From positions 1-64,000 of IMG/VR virus record IMGVR_UViG_3300023238_000005: a stretch of 64,000 nt of DNA, one strand, 5' to 3'. The notes under the pieces are model-generated. The model searched no databases. It saw only the letters and a program-made list of their open reading frames with translations, and had not been told where the DNA came from. Position numbers and translations under genes: made by a program. This document shows positions 165 to 23,995 of this stretch, piece by piece. How positions within the stretch are numbered: position 1 is the first letter of the stretch; every line of letters begins with the position of its first letter. This DNA is from a virus.

Positions 165-1730
165 TTAGTTTCCTATTCTAAGTTGAACATTACTATTAAA
201 TTTATTAAATGCATATCTATTAGTACTTCCTAATAAACTACGAGTGTCAGTGTAATCAACGACACTAGCAGTATCATACAGTTTTACAGTTTTAGCACTA
301 GTACTAATAAACGCTTTTGCTTGCGCAGGTGTAGCACCAGGATTTATTTGTAACCATAATGCTAACATGCCTGCTACTTGTGGCGATGCCATACTAGTAC
401 CGCTTATATTATTAATTAAAAAAGTAGCGTCTGCAGGATAAGGATTGTTTAGTGTAGTTGCGCCGAATTTATTAGTAGTACTCATTGCACTCATAATATA
501 TGTGCCAGGAGCATAAATGCTTACACCTGGCCCGCATTCTGAGCTAATAGATTTTTGCTCTAGTCCGCCTGCGTTTACAGTACTATCAACATTGCCTACA
601 ATATGTGCTTCGTCGTCATACGGACTTGATCCTTTTTGGTACTCTACTGATCCTGTGTCTGCTGCAATAAAGTTACTGTAGTCATCGCCGCCTACAACGT
701 CAATCTTATGACTTCTGTTGCCTGCTGCAATTGTAACGTGTACACCAGCATCGATTAATTCTTGTAAGTCAGTATCAACAGATCCGATTCGTACATTAGT
801 AGCATATGTGCCACCGAGGCCTCCACTTATAGGAGGTAGGCCAAATGCCCAGCGTTTTGCTGTTGAATCAATATCTGTGCCTGTCTTTAACACTCCGCGA
901 TATGTAAGATTGATAACAGTATTGTAGTATCTTAAATATCCCCAACTCATATTTACTACTGTAGGACGTTTTACGCCGGTTGTAGGATCTACTGGTTTTG
1001 CAAGATGCCATTCTTTGATGCAATCAAAAGCGTATGTTGTGCTTGTGCCTGTGCCACTGTCGCCTGCACCTTCTAGTCCAGCTAATTTTAAACTATAAAT
1101 TTTAGCATTTTTAGCCCACCCGTATGTTTTGCCTGCGGCTGTACCGGCTACGTGTGTGCCGTGCCCGTCAAAGTCTCTATAATAGTTTGCATTTTGTGCA
1201 GGCATTCCTACAATGCCGCTCTCGGTAGTCCAGTTAATTTGTTGTACACGACTAACTCCGTTTGCATCTTGAAACTCAGGATGGTCTGCTTGTATGCCAC
1301 TGTCCATAATAACAACATCAACCCCTGTGCCGTCTAATGTGTAGTTGTAACCGCCTTCAGCTGCATTTACACCAGTGTACCCATTTGTTGCTTCGTTTAT
1401 ACGTTTCATGCCCCAGTTTAGGAAGTCACCACGGTCTAGTGTAGTTTTAGTAAAATCACCAGTCTGTGTAGCACGAGTTCCTATACCTATGTTTGGGTCT
1501 AATTCAGGTAATAATGTTACAGCATATACTCGTCCGTCATTGCGCAGTGTTTCTGCTTCTGCATCAGTTAAATTATAGTGTGTATTACGTTGCGAAGCAG
1601 GTCGTGCATTAGCAACTGTAACATCACGACTTGGTATTGCTCCTGCTCCAGTCGCAGCAATCATTTCTGCGTTAAATGCAGCGTAGTCTACGCCTCGATT
1701 TAAACTTACAATATATTCTTTTTCGCTCAT
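165..1730 (-). CDS. Subtilisin-like S8 serine protease
   Basis: Catalytic triad motifs VVIMDSGI, HGTHVAG and SGTSMASP; oxyanion AAGN. Confidence 0.93.
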   Translation of the reverse strand: MSEKEYIVSLNRGVDYAAFNAEMIAATGAGAIPSRDVTVANARPASQRNTHYNLTDAEAETLRNDGRVYAVTLLPELDPNIGIGTRATQTGDFTKTTLDRGDFLNWGMKRINEATNGYTGVNAAEGGYNYTLDGTGVDVVIMDSGIQADHPEFQDANGVSRVQQINWTTESGIVGMPAQNANYYRDFDGHGTHVAGTAAGKTYGWAKNAKIYSLKLAGLEGAGDSGTGTSTTYAFDCIKEWHLAKPVDPTTGVKRPTVVNMSWGYLRYYNTVINLTYRGVLKTGTDIDSTAKRWAFGLPPISGGLGGTYATNVRIGSVDTDLQELIDAGVHVTIAAGNRSHKIDVVGGDDYSNFIAADTGSVEYQKGSSPYDDEAHIVGNVDSTVNAGGLEQKSISSECGPGVSIYAPGTYIMSAMSTTNKFGATTLNNPYPADATFLINNISGTSMASPQVAGMLALWLQINPGATPAQAKAFISTSAKTVKLYDTASVVDYTDTRSLLGSTNRYAFNKFNSNVQLRIGN

Positions 1731-1744
1731 TTTATTTTCCTATA

Positions 1745-4720
1745 TTATGCTGCTGCTGCAACTGTTACCCATGCGCCGCCCAAATAAGCAACTAGTGTAT
1801 TTTTACTATTTGTAGCAGGATCCCATCCTGTACCGTCTGCAATAACCATCATTCCGTTTACAGGATTGCTTGGTTCTGCGTTCAATGGTGTTAGTGTCAT
1901 CATATCACTAAACATTGCATAATTTACAGCATCAACCATTAGCGAACTATCATCAGCAAAAACGCTACCGCTAACATCACCTGCTAGTGTACCAGTGTGC
2001 GCACCATTTGCACTACCTGTTAGTGTTCCGTTAACAGTTGCATTATGTATTGTTACTTGTTGCCCGCGAGTGCTGCCAGTAGTACCTATTATAACATCGC
2101 CTGATGATGCTGTTGCATTGATTGCAATATTAGCTACATCAGCGGGATTACCCGGAGCATTAGGTTGAGTTGTCAATTCAATATAATTAATACCGGTTTG
2201 ATCCATTTGGATCTTGCTCATGCCTGCATCATCTGTGCCTGCGTTAATGTTAATAAAGCCATCAACATTAACTGCTAGATCATCTGTAGTGTGATTTTCG
2301 ATAGTTGTTGCTTTAACAAGTGTGCCTGAAATGTTAGCTGATACAATCGGTCCAACAATAGTACCAGACTGTCCATCTATCATTACAGTTGAATCGTCTG
2401 CTACAACACTACCTTTTATATCACCTGTTATACCAGCTTGTGCATTAATATTATTTGTAATTGGTCCAAAGAATCTAATATAGTCTGCTGTTAAGTTAAC
2501 ATATCTATTAGTTCCCTGCGGCCCAATACTAATTGCATTGCCGTCACCTGTAGCAGTAGTAATTGATATACTATCGTCTGCTGTAATTTCTCCTGCAATT
2601 AGTGCTGGTAAATTAACTGTACCGTTGATAGTAGTTGTACTACCTGCGTTACCGATTGCAATCGTTGTTGCAGTTGCCGCACCAACTGTTAGTATAGTGT
2701 TATCAATGTTACCTGTTACATCTCCAGTAAGATTACCAACAACGTTTCCGTTTAGTGTAGCATTAAAAGTTCCGTTAATTGTAGTTGTATTACCTACCTT
2801 ACCAATAGTGACATTACCAGTAGTTGCACCAGTACCAATGGCTACTGTTCCAGTAGCAGCACCATTAATGCTAACACCAGCAGTTGAAGTAATACTAATA
2901 CCACTGTTGCTTACTGATACATCACCCGACGATACGTCTCCTAGTGATACTGTTCCGCCTGTGCCTCTGTAAATATTTAAATTTGCACTTGCTCTACCTT
3001 GTACTGTTGTTGTAACTACTTCTGTGTTATCAATATCACCAACAATCTTGTTGTTAACACCATCTACTAATACAGTCGAATCGTCTCCGAACACAGTACC
3101 GGTCATGTCACTAGTAATACTTGGTGCAGTGATTGAGCCTGTAACTTCTAAATTTCCATCTACTTTTACTTTACCTGCTGGTAACAATTCAATATCAGTT
3201 GTAACACTTACAACTTGTACAATTCCGTTGCCGCCCATTGTAAGTGTGCCAGTTGCAGTAACATTACCGTCTGTCATTACAAGATCATCAGTTGATACTG
3301 ATAAACTTCCTACAACATAATTAGCTTCAAGTCTATTAGCAAGGAAACTAGCATCGTCAGTAACTATCCATTTGCCACCAAAGTTTTCTGTCCATACTAA
3401 GGATCTATTAGCACTACTGCCACGTTCAATCTCAATACCCGAAGTAGTTAGTGTAACACCTGCACCAGTTTCGCCTTTGTTTAGTGTAATAACATTGTCA
3501 GTAATATCTGTGTTCGTTGTTTCGATACTTGTAGTTGTACCAGTAATGGTTAAGTCACCGGCAATTACAACATCATTAAAGTTTGATGTTCCTGTTGTAG
3601 CTACTACATTACCGTTAACGTCGCGCCACGCACTGCCTTGATACATCTGTAGGCGGCTAGTTGTGGTGTTGTAGATTACATCACCTTCTTGTGCACCGAT
3701 TGCCAGTTGCTCAGTACCGGACACACTTGCAAATCTAAACGGAACTCCACCATCAATTTTAACTCTGTTGCCTGCTGTAATTTCTAAATCAGTTGTAGCA
3801 GTTAATTGAGCAACACCTATTGCTTCGCTTAAATTTACTGCGCCTGTAGCAACATTACTTGCATTAACGGTTACAAAATTTGCTTCGTTAAATGGCAATG
3901 CTGCTGTACCTACACTGCCGCCTTGTGCAAACTGAGGAGTAATATCTTCAAGAACTCTAGTTAATCCTATTTCTAAAGTTCCTCCGTTTGAAGGAAGAAT
4001 AACAATACTATCGCCTTCGATAAATCCAGACGTTGTGCCAAAGTCAATATCGCCTACAATTTTACCTGCGACAGCATCTACTAATAGCGTACTGTCATCA
4101 GCAAACACACTACCTTGTATGTCTGTTACAAACTGTTGTCCTTCGTCAAACAATCCAGCTAATTGTGTATCTAAATCAACAGCTCTTAAATATCCTATGT
4201 CGTCTGTAAATTCTGAAAGGAACGTTGGTGCACCTTGCAGTGCAGCATAGCTTATTTTACCAGTTGTTGCATCAAACACAATTTCTTCGTTAAATGAAAC
4301 TAAATTACCTTTTAGTGTACTAGCTACTACTTCATTAAATTTCTTAGCCTCTGTACCTACATAACCTATGTTGTCAGTAGTTGGAACAATTCTATTATCA
4401 ACAGTAATAGTATCAATTTCAATATTACCTAGGTCGCTTAGTGGTCTATATTCTAGTCCAGTACCGTCTGCTTTAACTTTTACAAAGTAGTTTGGAGAAC
4501 CGACAAACGTACTTGGTGTATCTGTTAGATCATTAAATGCTTGTGCAACTAGTCTGTTGCCGTTAACTTTTATGTCAGCGGCATCAATGGTACCTAGTGC
4601 AGTTATGTTCTGCACACCTGTGATACTATTGTCCGTAAGATTTAAATTATCTCCAGCTTGGATTTCTTTAATCTTGTTGTTGTCCGTTGTATCAAGTACT
4701 AGGGGAAATCTATTGGCCAT
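1745..4720 (-). CDS. Tail-fibre-like structural protein
   Basis: G/T/N-rich beta-type composition, four GSVFADDS-type repeats, located in the structural block. Confidence 0.7.
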   Translation of the reverse strand: MANRFPLVLDTTDNNKIKEIQAGDNLNLTDNSITGVQNITALGTIDAADIKVNGNRLVAQAFNDLTDTPSTFVGSPNYFVKVKADGTGLEYRPLSDLGNIEIDTITVDNRIVPTTDNIGYVGTEAKKFNEVVASTLKGNLVSFNEEIVFDATTGKISYAALQGAPTFLSEFTDDIGYLRAVDLDTQLAGLFDEGQQFVTDIQGSVFADDSTLLVDAVAGKIVGDIDFGTTSGFIEGDSIVILPSNGGTLEIGLTRVLEDITPQFAQGGSVGTAALPFNEANFVTVNASNVATGAVNLSEAIGVAQLTATTDLEITAGNRVKIDGGVPFRFASVSGTEQLAIGAQEGDVIYNTTTSRLQMYQGSAWRDVNGNVVATTGTSNFNDVVIAGDLTITGTTTSIETTNTDITDNVITLNKGETGAGVTLTTSGIEIERGSSANRSLVWTENFGGKWIVTDDASFLANRLEANYVVGSLSVSTDDLVMTDGNVTATGTLTMGGNGIVQVVSVTTDIELLPAGKVKVDGNLEVTGSITAPSITSDMTGTVFGDDSTVLVDGVNNKIVGDIDNTEVVTTTVQGRASANLNIYRGTGGTVSLGDVSSGDVSVSNSGISITSTAGVSINGAATGTVAIGTGATTGNVTIGKVGNTTTINGTFNATLNGNVVGNLTGDVTGNIDNTILTVGAATATTIAIGNAGSTTTINGTVNLPALIAGEITADDSISITTATGDGNAISIGPQGTNRYVNLTADYIRFFGPITNNINAQAGITGDIKGSVVADDSTVMIDGQSGTIVGPIVSANISGTLVKATTIENHTTDDLAVNVDGFININAGTDDAGMSKIQMDQTGINYIELTTQPNAPGNPADVANIAINATASSGDVIIGTTGSTRGQQVTIHNATVNGTLTGSANGAHTGTLAGDVSGSVFADDSSLMVDAVNYAMFSDMMTLTPLNAEPSNPVNGMMVIADGTGWDPATNSKNTLVAYLGGAWVTVAAAA

Positions 4721-15372: not shown

Positions 15373-15744
15373 TTATATTGCTGTTGCTAGCGAATTGTCT
15401 AAGTTTTCTACATCAAAGTTAATGCTTACGCCGCATCCACATGCTGATTGTGCGTTTGGATTGTTAACTTGAAAAGTTGCACCCATTATATCTTTAACAT
15501 AATCTATTTCTGTACCTGCCATGTACATTACTGCTATTGCACCAACTACAAATTTACCTGTATCTGAGTCAATAACTATATCATTCTCTTCTAGATCAGC
15601 TTCTGTTGCTACAATTGTCCAATCGTATTCAAATCCAGCGCAGCCGCCACCTTTTAAATTGAGACTGACTGCATAACTGTCATTTTCTTGACATATACTA
15701 TCAATTTGTGCTTTTGCTGTGTCCGTTAGTGTAACTATACTCAT
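15373..15744 (-). CDS. iscA: A-type Fe-S cluster carrier (IscA/SufA/HesB family)
   Basis: GGGCAGFEY and NPNAQSACGCGVS motifs. Confidence 0.92.
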   Translation of the reverse strand: MSIVTLTDTAKAQIDSICQENDSYAVSLNLKGGGCAGFEYDWTIVATEADLEENDIVIDSDTGKFVVGAIAVMYMAGTEIDYVKDIMGATFQVNNPNAQSACGCGVSINFDVENLDNSLATAI

Positions 15745-15773: not shown

Positions 15774-15807
15774 GTTGCGTTTTATAATCTTAATGTTAAA
15801 TATACTT

Positions 15808-16095
15808 ATGTACATAAGAGAATTTAAAAAGCAGACCCGGCATGTGCGTAAAAGCAAAATGGGCAAGGAACATGCCTATAAGCGTGAAGTTACGCATTGT
15901 GTATTTAGGTGTGATAATTGCGATGCAGAGTTTGAGCGCACAAGAGGTAGCATGGATCCAAAGCGTCTAAGTAATAACTACTTTCACGTATGTAAGAACT
16001 GTGATGCAAAAGTTTTTGCCCAAAAGAAAGGCGTAGAGCGCAAACAAGTTTGGAACATGAGTGCTAGTAGCTCTACGCCTATTGGTAAGTTATAG
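15808..16095 (+). CDS. Hypothetical zinc-ribbon protein
   Basis: CDNC and CKNC cysteine pairs; ATG at 15808. Confidence 0.65.
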   Translation: MYIREFKKQTRHVRKSKMGKEHAYKREVTHCVFRCDNCDAEFERTRGSMDPKRLSNNYFHVCKNCDAKVFAQKKGVERKQVWNMSASSSTPIGKL

Positions 16096-16096
16096 A

Positions 16097-16168
16097 TTAT
16101 CTAGTCTTAAAATACATAGTAATCTCAAACCCTAGTCGCATATCTTGATACGTTGGTTTAGTCCACAT
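16097..16168 (-). CDS. pqqA: PQQ precursor peptide PqqA (23 aa)
   Basis: Hand translation [23 protein letters not shown] matches the PqqA pattern (W-x-K-P, R-x-G-F-E-x-T-M-Y with the ExxxY core); SD AAGGAG upstream; not in the ORF track. Confidence 0.92.
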
Positions 16169-16178
16169 AATAATCTCC

Positions 16179-16310
16179 TTATAGTTTTTTATAGTCGCCG
16201 ATGCGCTTAACTTCGTTAAATGCCTCGTGTCCTTCAAAATACATCTGTACCATTACATATATTGCTATATTAACAAATATAAGAATTCCATATATTAAAT
16301 AGCCAATCAT
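16179..16310 (-). CDS. 43-aa single-pass membrane peptide
   Basis: [43 protein letters not shown]; ATGA overlap with the upstream stop; its own stop overlaps the pqqA SD. Confidence 0.65.
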
Positions 16311-17536
16311 AAGTTTTTCCAAGTAAATGCGCCAAAGAACATTTCATCTTCTGACATTTGTCCCCATGGCACTAGTCTGCTTGGGTCTGGATTCATTTTA
16401 TTCTCTTCTGAGTTATCAAAAGCCCCTTCTACAAAAAGGCGTGTTCCTTTAGGTAAAGGCTTAGGCTCTTTCCAGGTATATGATAGCTGCCAAGCGTAGT
16501 TGTATACAGGAATATCGATTAGCTCCTCTACAGTACCATCTGGGTAGAATGCAGTTGCTTTCATGCTTTTACCACGGAAATGCATGTGGGGTAAGAATGT
16601 ATGCAAGTTAACATCGTTCTTTAATACTACTTCTGCTGTCTGAATAAAGTTAGGGTCATACGGCGGGATCGGTGTCCACGTATCAGGAAATATACAAGCG
16701 CAATCTCCTGCCATTCTTTCTTGTGGTACTACACCTTCGTCGTGAAAGTATAGGCCAATTCTTGCTTTATCTGTTCTAGCAGTGCCGTCTGGTGTGTAGT
16801 GTAGTTGCAAGTTTACAATTGATCCTGCACGTATTAACCCACCAGTGTTCTCGTCATAAAATTCAGGATCACCACCTGGAACATATGCAGAGATAGAAGC
16901 ATTGTTCATTTCTTCTTGACCACCACCTTGTGTACCTAAGATGTTACCGTTGCGCTCGCCAGGTACTGTAATTGAGTTTAGCATGTGATGCATTACAGTT
17001 GGCTCTGAAGGCAAAAACTGTGACCCACGTAACCAACGATCCTCAGTTAATCCTAGGTCTGCTTGCGTGTATCTGTAAGGTATTGCATTAGGTCCCATAG
17101 ATCCTATTGCTGGTATTTCTTGTGGGGGAACTTCGATAATCATATCAGGTTCACCGTGTACCCATTCTGAAGTTGAGTACGTAGTTTCTGTTAGAGGATC
17201 TCTATCACCTTCTACAGGAGTGCCTGCGTCAATCCAAGCTACAAGAGTTTCCATCTCTAAATCATTTAGCGTTCTGTGATTTATGATATCCTTTGCATAC
17301 TTGCGATCGATCTGTCCTGGTGGCATACGTTTTGATACAATAGCTTCTTTAATTGCAGGAGCAAATGCTTGTAGCATTCTATAGTCAGTCATTGCCCATG
17401 GCGCAATGCCACTTTCTCTATGACAAGCTTGACATTGTTCTACAAATATAGGTGCTACATTTTCAGCGTAGTCGATATCTACAGCTAGTCCTGCCGCTGG
17501 TAATAAACTACTTACTAGCCATATTAACTTTTTCAT
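16307..17536 (-). CDS. Exported cytochrome c plus copper type II (PHM/DBH-like) monooxygenase, paralogue B
   Basis: Signal-peptide-like N-terminus, CQACH heme motif, candidate Cu ligands MHHM...LHY and PHMH...DEM. Confidence 0.85.
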   Translation of the reverse strand: MKKLIWLVSSLLPAAGLAVDIDYAENVAPIFVEQCQACHRESGIAPWAMTDYRMLQAFAPAIKEAIVSKRMPPGQIDRKYAKDIINHRTLNDLEMETLVAWIDAGTPVEGDRDPLTETTYSTSEWVHGEPDMIIEVPPQEIPAIGSMGPNAIPYRYTQADLGLTEDRWLRGSQFLPSEPTVMHHMLNSITVPGERNGNILGTQGGGQEEMNNASISAYVPGGDPEFYDENTGGLIRAGSIVNLQLHYTPDGTARTDKARIGLYFHDEGVVPQERMAGDCACIFPDTWTPIPPYDPNFIQTAEVVLKNDVNLHTFLPHMHFRGKSMKATAFYPDGTVEELIDIPVYNYAWQLSYTWKEPKPLPKGTRLFVEGAFDNSEENKMNPDPSRLVPWGQMSEDEMFFGAFTWKNL

Positions 17537-18791
17537 TCCTTTCCTCTTTTAGTTTATTGTATCCTTCCTCGTCTAAGTGTGTAATAGCAAGCCAAGCGTG
17601 AGTCATTTCGTCACCTGTTCTTGAACCTCCCATTACCCACATATCAGCATCTGGATTATTTGGATTGTTTTCTGTATTATCATACCATTGCTTTAGCACA
17701 ATAACTGCGCCTGCTGGTATAAGCGGTGCTACGTCTGAATTGTACAAATGACTGTGATGCCATGTTGCACTCCAATTTGATACTTGGCTAATCTGTTCTG
17801 TTTGTCCTGTCTCAGGATAGAATATTTCCAAACTTGCTGCGTTCATACGCAAGTGTCCATGTGGTTGAAAACTATCTAGTCTAACTGGATGATCAAAACT
17901 GTGGAAGCCTTGTGTCATGTAATAGCCGTTGGGTGGGATAGTAATATCGTCCTGGTCTCCTAGGCGATATAAACTCAAGTCTTGTTTGTATTTCAATTCT
18001 TGGCTTTCCTCTTCGGTGTATAACCAAAGCCCAATCTCTACCACGTTGTCTCGAATAACTGATCCTGGTGCCATTGCTCCAAGTCCACCGGGGAACATAT
18101 GAATGTCCCATGCTACTTCTGCGTTTGCTGGTATAGTACGACATACTCCTTGTGGTACTATTTCTCCCCACTTTCCCATAGCATACTCAGTCAGCATACC
18201 TTGCCTGCCTCCCTCAGTTATAATACTTGAGTTGGCATGATGTACTACTGATTTTGCATCGCCACGTGGTTTAACTTGTACTGCTTTAATGCAACGGTCT
18301 TCACTTAGTCCTGTTGGAACATTGTGCTTGTGCCACAAGTCGTTACCGCTTGCTGGAATGTCAATTGCAACACTGGCAATGATTGCGTCCGGTGCGCCAA
18401 AGTCTTCTTCAAAACTCCATGCTTCTGGATCACGCAAATTTACTGGCTGTACTACCTTGTCTGGGTCGCCATAACTTGCTCCGGTATCTACCCACTCAAC
18501 TACTGTGTCTATGTCTTTTTGTGATAAGCGCCAATCACCTTGTAGGTCTTGAATTCCAATACCGTGGTCATACGCATATGGCGGCATCTCTCTTTTCATT
18601 ACTTTAAGTGATATTAATGGTGCCCAAGGGCGTACTTGCTCGTATGTTTCAAAGCTCATTGGCCCGATGCCACCAGCGCGATGACACACTACACAATTAT
18701 CGTTGATGATAGCTGCTACTTCGTTAGTGTATGTTTGTGCTGATAGGACAAGTGGGAATAAAGCCGCTAATGCTGCTGTAATATATTTCAT
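17508..18791 (-). CDS. Exported cytochrome c plus copper type II (PHM/DBH-like) monooxygenase, paralogue A
   Basis: Signal-peptide-like N-terminus, CVVCH heme motif, VHHA...IHM and PHGH...DEM. Confidence 0.85.
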   Translation of the reverse strand: MKYITAALAALFPLVLSAQTYTNEVAAIINDNCVVCHRAGGIGPMSFETYEQVRPWAPLISLKVMKREMPPYAYDHGIGIQDLQGDWRLSQKDIDTVVEWVDTGASYGDPDKVVQPVNLRDPEAWSFEEDFGAPDAIIASVAIDIPASGNDLWHKHNVPTGLSEDRCIKAVQVKPRGDAKSVVHHANSSIITEGGRQGMLTEYAMGKWGEIVPQGVCRTIPANAEVAWDIHMFPGGLGAMAPGSVIRDNVVEIGLWLYTEEESQELKYKQDLSLYRLGDQDDITIPPNGYYMTQGFHSFDHPVRLDSFQPHGHLRMNAASLEIFYPETGQTEQISQVSNWSATWHHSHLYNSDVAPLIPAGAVIVLKQWYDNTENNPNNPDADMWVMGGSRTGDEMTHAWLAITHLDEEGYNKLKEERNEKVNMASK

Positions 18792-18882: not shown

Positions 18883-19047
18883 TTATTCTGACTTATATAT
18901 TGTCCAAGCACCATATGCAATAGCACCGTATGCTACTAAAGCTGCTATAGGTTTAAATATTAGAAATGCAATTCCTGCAAGTACTAATACTGCACCGTCT
19001 AGTGTAGTTCTTTCTTCTAATCTTTTCTTTATCCATGTTTTAACCAT
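18883..19047 (-). CDS. Small two-TM membrane protein (54 aa)
   Basis: Hand translation MVKTWIKKRLEERTTLDGAVLVLAGIAFLIFKPIAALVAYGAIAYGAWTIYKSE; SD AAGGAG. Confidence 0.7.
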   Translation of the reverse strand: MVKTWIKKRLEERTTLDGAVLVLAGIAFLIFKPIAALVAYGAIAYGAWTIYKSE

Positions 19048-22703: not shown

Positions 22704-23549
22704 CTAAATTGTCCAATTATCAACCACCCACTGATCCTTGCAGTTATGCGGATTAGGATCTCCGTGGAATACTGCTACACTTGTAGTATTTTTAATTGTA
22801 GGTTCGCCAGCAGTTTCAAAGTCACGTTGTCCTCTTGGACTTTTGTCATACCTAGGACGTCCGCGCATTTCCCACTTATAGCTTTGTATCCATTCTTCGG
22901 GCCAATATTCGAATTCGCCATCTGGTATTGTTGCTCGAAGCCAATCTTGGTCTCCGTGATATCTTCTAATAGGCCCGTTTGGATCTTTCATAAAGTTAGT
23001 ATAAACTTTACTATGCATACTAGTATCTAGTCTAAAGATACTGCTATTAAATTTATTATAATTACGTATAAACTGCCTATTAAAATCTCGAATAATGCAA
23101 AATTTATTTGGTTTGAATGTAAACAAATAATCAATGTTCTCAAAAATTATTACATCTAAGTCTAGGAAAAGGACCGTTCCTTTTAATCCTATATTGGGAT
23201 TGAAGAACATTGGCTTGTACCACCAACCTGTTACTCCTGGCATCAGTGGAATAGGTTCAATTCTGATGCCAAGATCGATACCGGTTGCATCTTCGGTATA
23301 ACAAACAAATTCATGATCAAGTGTAAGGTTACGCTTGACCATGTTATATAACTTGTTTACATAGTCTGCACTATACTTGGTACCATACTTTAAGCACACG
23401 ACATAACGAGTAGCGTCCGAAAGATTAATAGGCAGTTTCGCTGGCACCGATACGGAAGTTATACTCTCGTCAAGAGGACGACACCCTTTGTTGGTATTTT
23501 TTCTTGCCTTGCGTTCTGCTTTAGTTTCTCCTTCAGTGTACTGTTTCAT
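22704..23549 (-). CDS. Glycosyltransferase-like protein (GT-A fold)
   Basis: CLKYGTKYSADYVNKLY, LFLDLD (DxD), NSS, GDQDW, FHGDPNP; start set at ATG 23549. Confidence 0.7.
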   Translation of the reverse strand: MKQYTEGETKAERKARKNTNKGCRPLDESITSVSVPAKLPINLSDATRYVVCLKYGTKYSADYVNKLYNMVKRNLTLDHEFVCYTEDATGIDLGIRIEPIPLMPGVTGWWYKPMFFNPNIGLKGTVLFLDLDVIIFENIDYLFTFKPNKFCIIRDFNRQFIRNYNKFNSSIFRLDTSMHSKVYTNFMKDPNGPIRRYHGDQDWLRATIPDGEFEYWPEEWIQSYKWEMRGRPRYDKSPRGQRDFETAGEPTIKNTTSVAVFHGDPNPHNCKDQWVVDNWTI

Positions 23550-23995
23550 TATGCCTCGTAAATCGCTGAGTTTGCTCCATGCTCTGCACATTCTGCACTT
23601 ACACAGAAACAGCGATTGTTAGTTGCTTCACGTACTAGTTTGTCTGCAAAGTTAAATGCATGTTCTGCAAACTTCTCTGCACCAACACCGTCCATTACAA
23701 CAATTTCTGCTAGGTCAAGTTCTTGTAGTTCCATGAACTTTTCTAAGTATGGATCATCTTTGTCGATTGCAGTCTTGTGATCAAAGTTATCTTCTAGCCA
23801 TTTCTTTAGTGGCTTTAGTCCACCAAAGTCTACTGCCCAGTTTTTATGATCTAGTTCTGTACATCCAAACTTAAATGTAAATGCTAAACTGTATCCGTGT
23901 AGTAAGTGACAGTGTGAATGATCTGCGTTAGGTTGCCTAAATACCGCTGATAACCCAATGTTGTGTCCGTAATGCTTAGTTGAATAATATGCCAT
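23549..23995 (-). CDS. queD: 6-pyruvoyl-tetrahydropterin synthase / QueD
   Basis: SHCHLLHGY, VDFG, FDHK and EKFAE motifs. Confidence 0.88.
   Translation of the reverse strand: MAYYSTKHYGHNIGLSAVFRQPNADHSHCHLLHGYSLAFTFKFGCTELDHKNWAVDFGGLKPLKKWLEDNFDHKTAIDKDDPYLEKFMELQELDLAEIVVMDGVGAEKFAEHAFNFADKLVREATNNRCFCVSAECAEHGANSAIYEA

Follow-up and report, generated by a model that had tools for sequence, protein, structure and literature searches.

A 72-bp orphan pqqA gene in a T4-like giant marine phage that probably supplies the PQQ pathway of its host

Why would a phage carry the gene for PqqA, the precursor peptide of PQQ, and none of the enzymes that turn the peptide into the cofactor? The question arises from a 64,000-nucleotide stretch of viral DNA (hereafter the window), which covers the opening 64 kb of an IMG/VR record of 116,040 bp that is rated ~32% complete, which implies a genome of ~360 kb. 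The original prediction described a 23-aa PqqA with a strong Shine–Dalgarno sequence and no other pqq genes in the window, and it proposed a host that relies on PQQ dehydrogenases.

We find that the gene encodes a bona fide PqqA. The peptide is exactly as predicted and lies at the predicted coordinates (Table 1), on the minus strand, a point that the prediction had left unstated; reverse-complement translation yields the ORF, and the plus-strand frame over the same interval is interrupted by a stop codon. The peptide scores about twice the curated cut-offs of both PqqA profiles, Pfam PF08042 (42.9 bits versus 21.1, E = 4e-11) and the NCBIfam equivalog TIGR02107 (44.8 bits versus 20), and a six-frame PqqA scan of the 116-kb record returned this one site only (40.7 bits, E = 5e-11). 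Its Glu15 and Tyr19, within ...GFEITMY..., form the Glu-x3-Tyr pair that PqqE cross-links in PqqA (PMC10906245). Like PqqA in general (typically ~20–40 aa), it is a stand-alone short ORF with its own ribosome-binding site, an AAGGAG that overlaps the stop codon of the upstream micro-ORF. An Rfam scan found no family overlapping the pqqA region.

Table 1. Positions of pqqA, its neighbours and the comparison genes discussed in the text
Feature	Sequence	Position	Strand	Remarks
pqqA	This record	16097–16168	minus	23 codons + TAA; ATG 16168–16166, TAA 16099–16097
Shine–Dalgarno AAGGAG of pqqA	This record	16175–16180	minus	6-nt spacer to ATG
89-bp cassette	This record	16096–16184	minus	Shine–Dalgarno, pqqA, stop and 1 nt; exactly lacking in nearest relative L265 (alignment)
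CTATAA direct repeat	This record	16184–16179 and 16095–16090		Bounds the cassette
43-aa micro-protein	This record	16179–16310	minus	Single-helix membrane protein; ATG 16310, TAA 16181–16179; ATGA overlap with orf409 stop
orf409	This record	16307–17536	minus	Exported cytochrome-c domain fused to predicted PHM/DBH-type two-copper monooxygenase fold
orf427	This record	17508–18791	minus	Paralogue of orf409 (26% identity, E = 7e-32); first of the four-gene string
54-aa membrane-like ORF	This record	18883–19047	minus	Own AAGGAG; just upstream of orf427
Zn-ribbon-like ORF (CxxC...CxxC)	This record	15775–16095	plus	Convergent; stop codon 1 nt from pqqA stop
IscA/HesB-type Fe-S carrier	This record	15373–15744	minus	PF01521, 61.7 bits
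QueD-like 6-pyruvoyl-tetrahydropterin synthase	This record	23549–23995	minus	PF01242
tRNA-Arg(tct)	This record	108550–108626		ARAGORN
~668-aa protein preceding pqqA	MAG locus L203	3655–5664	plus	Co-oriented with pqqA
~668-aa protein preceding pqqA	MAG locus L160	5410–7413	minus	Co-oriented with pqqA
pqqA, unannotated	Melnitz-1 (MZ577095.1)	3995–4069	plus	With Shine–Dalgarno
pqqA, unannotated	Venkman	3001–3072		With Shine–Dalgarno
pqqA, unannotated	P19250A	3001–3072		With Shine–Dalgarno
pqqA, unannotated	MEP301	3001–3072		With Shine–Dalgarno
pqqA, unannotated	MEP402	621–692		With Shine–Dalgarno
pqqA, unannotated	MW202481.1	2119–2190		With Shine–Dalgarno

In this phage the gene is a true orphan. 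Models for PqqB, PqqC, PqqD, PqqE and PQQ-dependent alcohol dehydrogenase found no match in the whole 116-kb record, and the PqqE model matched in 14 of 14 control genomes. A tblastn search of the record with the PqqB–E and PQQ alcohol dehydrogenase of the candidate host (see below) was also negative. The same queries gave nothing significant in G048, a 339,794-bp phage genome (91% complete) that carries the same cassette, where the single marginal match to PqqD (43 aa, E = 0.01) is non-significant. The predicted absence of further pqq genes therefore extends from the window to the whole record, and the suggested search for pqqB–F elsewhere in the genome found PqqB–E missing from both the record and G048. 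Proximity to pqqB–E, which is typical of pqqA and not obligatory, is not seen here; bacteria, too, often have orphan copies, and in methylotrophs additional ones are normal.

On each side of pqqA are T4-like genes for structure and replication. They include a giant baseplate protein (2610 aa) whose start resembles T4 gp9/10, tail-fibre-like proteins, both topoisomerase II subunits, an ATP-dependent ligase and a homing endonuclease. The topoisomerase shares <40% identity with its counterparts in cultured T4-like phages, and the carrier is, as judged from these genes, a distant T4-like giant marine phage. Host contamination, which the original prediction had named as a possible objection, is excluded because the same phage flanks are found both in relatives that have the cassette and in relatives that lack it; the flanks of the gene are viral on both sides and not a host junction. 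ARAGORN found one tRNA gene (Table 1) and no tmRNA in the whole record. We had considered the tmRNA tag as an independent host marker and dropped it, as the record has no tmRNA and the candidate hosts have ordinary tags.

In its immediate neighbourhood, pqqA closes a string of four chained genes of one orientation, after orf427, orf409 and the micro-protein. A signal peptide and a single CxxCH are present in both orf427 and orf409. Across 15 aligned orf409 sequences, C35, C38, H39 and M71 are invariant, as are H183, H184, H246, H317, H319 and M399; these residues are predicted to be a c-type haem site (C35xxC38H39 with M71) and the two-copper ligand set of peptidylglycine hydroxylating monooxygenase (HH...H / HxH...M). 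The top Foldseek matches to the AlphaFold model of orf409 (mean pLDDT 72) are PHM 3mll (E 6e-10, probability 1.00) and DBH 4zel, and Pfam Cu2_monoox_C gives a sub-threshold match (E 0.011). The model thus combines the two-domain beta-sandwich fold with the copper ligands that would be expected of a PHM/DBH-type enzyme. The micro-protein is 89% identical in the nearest relative and is missing from most sister copies. The 54-aa ORF just upstream of orf427 is co-oriented with it and may belong to the same transcription unit. On the other side of pqqA, the Zn-ribbon-like ORF and the IscA/HesB-type carrier are syntenic in many relatives; any link of the carrier with the Fe-S-rich PqqE is speculative.

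Comparison with related loci indicates how pqqA came to sit in this position. An orf409 at 77–98% identity is encoded by 119 IMG/VR contigs. The orf427–orf409 pair is nearly always present among these relatives, and pqqA follows it in 15 of the 80 loci kept; a separate scan found the same cassette behind orf409 in 13 further loci. Because the cassette is absent from ~60 of 76 informative module loci, including that of the closest relative (L265, 98% identity in orf409), it is dispensable. The difference from this relative is exactly 89 bp and is bounded by a CTATAA direct repeat, and the presence or absence of pqqA on the orf409 tree requires at least five changes of state. A fresh, independent insertion into this phage, which the difference from the nearest relative and the orf409 tree might suggest, was rejected: both cassette junctions are common to the sister copies. 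A single origin of the cassette followed by deletions between the CTATAA repeats is more likely, because the junctions are the same in the sister copies. The phages that carry the module do not form a single close group: only 32 of 131 ORFs have a match in G048, at a median identity of 53%. The module itself is shared horizontally, given that it is 84–85% identical between this phage and G048. The QueD-like synthase, 90% identical to its G048 counterpart, is a second outlier beside the module. Other large pqqA-bearing IMG/VR contigs (356, 166, 148 and 72 kb) were set aside as relatives, since they share neither orf409 nor topoisomerase II.

To which bacteria would such a peptide belong? We scanned one genome per prokaryote species with the peptide core as the query and ranked the results over all 23 residues. 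Matches to the core came mainly from Burkholderiales. The best full-length PqqA peptides are found in three marine gammaproteobacterial MAGs (contigs NVUL01000020.1, CAJWGN010000022.1 and JAESUV010000078.1), with 22/23, 22/23 and 21/23 identical residues against 17/23 for the next best, and the three share with the phage peptide a rare MYFKTR tail. The same MAGs give the best matches to phage orf409, and each has 17–23 paralogues of it, the best of which are 47–50% identical (E 1e-125 to 1e-132) and, as in the family in these MAGs, bear an extra N-terminal redoxin-like domain that is missing from the phage copies. Two unrelated phage genes therefore point to the same bacteria as the probable host, by similarity of a peptide and of a protein. 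These bacteria look like heavy PQQ users: their pqqA heads a pqqA-B-D-E-C cluster, and each MAG has 28–46 PQQ-dehydrogenase-family matches, of which 5–7 pass a full-length cut-off. The expected reliance of the host on PQQ dehydrogenases is thus borne out in the predicted host lineage. The order of the MAG cluster is A-B-D-E-C and not A-B-C-D-E. The size of one of the MAGs (3.6 Mb) casts doubt on its NCBI label 'SAR86 cluster'. A co-oriented protein of ~668 aa precedes pqqA in the MAGs (Table 1), and we rejected a joint capture of pqqA and the PHM-like gene from the host on the ground that this upstream gene is a different one.

The match between the phage and MAG alleles is close at the protein level and does not look recent at the DNA level. 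Two patches inside the phage ORF are identical to the MAG allele where the sister copies differ, and of the five residues at which the phage peptide departs from the sisters, four parallel differences between the PqqA alleles of related MAGs. The DNA identity between phage and MAG pqqA is 85–87%, and synonymous changes amount to 9–11 of 12.8, which is near saturation, so a recent transfer from the MAGs was rejected. Because the synonymous sites are near saturation, the match has been maintained, by selection or by gene conversion, and is not recent. Allele matching is also seen between methylotroph phages and Methylophilaceae.

The gene is widespread among viruses. Three pattern scans of IMG/VR, in which counts refer to the matches listed, found orphan pqqA on at least 360 contigs. 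Intact PqqA-type ORFs with their own Shine–Dalgarno sequence make up 352 of the 359 motif matches listed, and neither pqqB–E nor a PQQ dehydrogenase was found in the flanks of the 360 stretches listed. All intact viral homologues among these matches retain the cross-linking Glu and Tyr; loss of the pair in phage homologues, which would have spoken against the original prediction, was not seen in any that we examined. Viral pqqA is under purifying selection, with a pN/pS of 0.155 (100 distinct sequences) and 0.208 and with the third codon position as the most variable (10, 9 and 19 variable sites at positions one to three). Most of the viral copies among the matches listed lie in unrelated contexts, without the module. 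IMGVR_UViG_3300023174_000036 (356,312 bp, 96% complete) is a giant phage with an orphan pqqA (MWTKPTAQEMRFGFEITMYVMNR) and without an orf409 module or topoisomerase II match, and pqqA therefore occurs in at least two unrelated giant-phage lineages. We discarded 'Acinetobacter phage MD-2021a' (CAKLQF020000010.1), in which a complete pqqABCDE lies next to ppk and a 5'-nucleotidase and which looks like a bacterial chromosomal contig.

Cultured phages carry the gene as well. Six methylotroph phage lineages have an intact, unannotated pqqA of 23–24 aa, and it was found in every such phage matched. The commonest allele of these phages is identical to that of Methylophilaceae, a family in which PqqA was present in 61 of 61 sampled genomes, in 1–12 scattered copies (usually 3–6), some of which could be prophage-borne.

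We consider it likely that pqqA of this phage is an orphan auxiliary metabolic gene whose product, a precursor peptide, feeds the PqqD, PqqE, PqqB and PqqC of the host, the rest of the pathway being present in the MAGs of the candidate host, itself identified by similarity. By the known pathway (PMC10906245), host PqqD would bind the phage-made peptide and the radical-SAM enzyme PqqE would cross-link Glu15 to Tyr19; the cross-linked peptide would then be trimmed, hydroxylated by PqqB and oxidized by PqqC to give PQQ. The indirect support for such processing is that 22 of 23 residues agree with a PqqA at the head of a full pqq cluster. Exported PQQ could load the many periplasmic PQQ dehydrogenases of the host, which in turn would raise or maintain the respiratory energy supply for phage production. 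The phage would thus carry only the pathway component that is destroyed at each turn and borrow the enzymes from its host. We infer from sequence the expression of the gene, its processing by host enzymes, its benefit to the phage and its timing relative to host shut-off. As a catalytic cofactor, PQQ survives its use, so a short infection would need new PQQ only where there is a surplus of apo-enzymes or a loss of PQQ, and we assume that one or the other occurs during infection. Precursor supply does matter in bacteria, as indicated by the multiple pqqA copies of Methylophilaceae and by reports that pqqA expression tracks the rate of PQQ synthesis, that cell extracts turn added PqqA into PQQ (PMC9851590) and that overexpressed pqqA or pqqAB raises PQQ (PMC7936290).

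Viral pqqA as such is already known from two metagenomic surveys. The first (Coutinho et al. 2020, PMC7678222) described PqqA, alongside a viral methanol dehydrogenase, in phages of Lake Baikal (population VP_266), and a 2026 survey of reservoir sediments reported virus-encoded pqqA, pqqE and pqqD (PMC13188868). The idea of a phage-borne pqqA is thus not new; every computable part of the original prediction holds for this locus. The papers on Melnitz and the MEP40x phages leave pqqA unmentioned. The Baikal gene likewise encodes the precursor on a phage, and it was read as an auxiliary metabolic gene in support of PQQ-dependent oxidation. However, the Baikal phage encodes methanol dehydrogenase and infects freshwater Methylophilaceae, whereas the phage described here is a marine T4-like giant without a PQQ enzyme. 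A gammaproteobacterium outside the Methylophilaceae, with many PQQ dehydrogenases, is predicted to be its host, and its pqqA is a cassette attached to a module. What appears to be new here, from these comparisons, is that the gene forms an 89-bp cassette that was lost in the nearest relative, that the cassette adjoins a shared module of two predicted exported cytochrome-c/copper monooxygenases and that the phage allele tracks the host allele. The scale on which the gene occurs and its absence from annotations also add to prior knowledge.

Other systems show the same design to differing degrees. The bacterial PqqA of the MAGs is likewise a 23-aa peptide, identical at 21–22 of 23 residues, with a W-x-x-P leader, a Glu-x3-Tyr core and a similar GGAGATTA ribosome site; the phage copy differs in having no pqqB–E in the record and a phage-like codon choice. 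The cultured methylotroph phages (Melnitz, Venkman, MEP301, MEP401/402 and P19250A) resemble this phage in having an orphan PqqA with its own Shine–Dalgarno sequence and an allele identical or nearly so to that of the host family. They differ in their allele family (EMRFGFEVTMYVMNK), in being unrelated phage types of 35–141 kb and in the genomic context of the gene. Cyanophage psbA, which encodes D1, follows the same logic, in that the phage carries one rapidly used-up component of an energy-yielding system of the host, and the host supplies the rest. D1, however, has a structural role and turns over through damage, whereas PqqA is a sacrificial cofactor substrate encoded by 72 bp.

The position of pqqA raises a more specific possibility, compatible with precursor supply, which we regard as doubtful: that it is kept 3' of the two cytochrome-c/copper-monooxygenase genes because the three work together. 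Extra PQQ could, for example, activate periplasmic PQQ dehydrogenases, with electrons passing through c-type haem to the phage monooxygenases, or alcohols made by the monooxygenases could serve as dehydrogenase substrates. The translational chaining of pqqA to orf409 and orf427, the recurrence of the cassette behind orf409 in the two sets of loci, the high identity of the module relative to the rest of the genome, the great expansion of both the module family and the PQQ dehydrogenases in the candidate hosts and the periplasmic redox character of both kinds of enzyme are all consistent with such a coupling. However, about four-fifths of module copies have no pqqA, most listed viral pqqA genes have no module, and adjacency in phage accessory regions often reflects tolerance of insertion and not a common function. 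PHM-family genes beside PQQ dehydrogenases in hosts were rejected as a functional link: in one host genome (G006), 2 of 21 module-family genes lie within 5 kb of PQQ dehydrogenases, and ~2 are expected by chance. An extended version, which we think improbable, would have the phage install a periplasmic oxidation circuit, in which extra PQQ switches on the surplus apo-PQQ-dehydrogenases of the host, the electrons or alcohol substrates of these enzymes are linked through c-type haem to the PHM-like monooxygenases, and the peptide is kept matched to the PqqA of each host. If true, it would be a novel type of phage reprogramming, in which several parts act together on periplasmic respiration.

Three further readings of the gene are all unlikely. 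It could be a very small piece of host DNA captured at an intergenic site that tolerates insertion, of no benefit to the phage, as its patchy distribution on the orf409 tree and the clean 89-bp difference from the nearest relative might suggest; nearly all listed viral copies are nevertheless intact with their own Shine–Dalgarno sequence, pN/pS is ~0.16–0.21, Glu and Tyr are invariably kept, changes in the protein track the host alleles even as synonymous sites drift, and the gene recurs in many unrelated phage types, including the six cultured lineages, so we give this explanation little weight. We find it hardly credible that the peptide ties up host PqqD or PqqE and shuts down host PQQ synthesis: a leader-containing peptide is expected to bind PqqD, and nothing specific favours this role, whereas the cross-linking residues and the whole core, which a decoy would be expected to lose, are kept nearly identical to the host substrate, and a block of PQQ in hosts that use it heavily would cut the energy that the phage needs. 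PHM-type enzymes act on animal peptides, and the two PHM-like genes upstream of pqqA could therefore hint at a phage-encoded peptide-modification pathway other than that for PQQ. This, too, is very improbable, given that the PHM-like enzymes are predicted to be periplasmic (signal peptides, c-type haem) and PqqA has no export signal, that the PqqE model, for all its success in the control genomes, found no candidate in the 116 kb, that the PqqD model found no RRE-type PqqD domain there and that most listed viral pqqA genes have no PHM-like neighbours.

With a supply of precursor to the host pathway as the favoured reading, the 72-bp pqqA may be the smallest widespread auxiliary metabolic gene. 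The agreement between phage and host PqqA alleles could provide a cheap host-prediction marker for uncultured phages, and it suggests that the variable PqqA residues are recognized by the host machinery. We envision that the sacrificial-substrate logic could be tested directly in existing phage–host pairs, such as OM43 with Melnitz or Venkman. Because pqqA falls below the size limits of gene callers, neither the cultured methylotroph phages nor most metagenomic viral contigs have it annotated, and the influence of viruses on PQQ-dependent oxidation of carbon (methanol, alcohols and sugars) is consequently under-counted. In Melnitz, a 'hypothetical protein' (Melnitz1EXVC043M_151) is annotated over pqqA on the opposite strand, and in Venkman the gene is antisense to all its neighbours.
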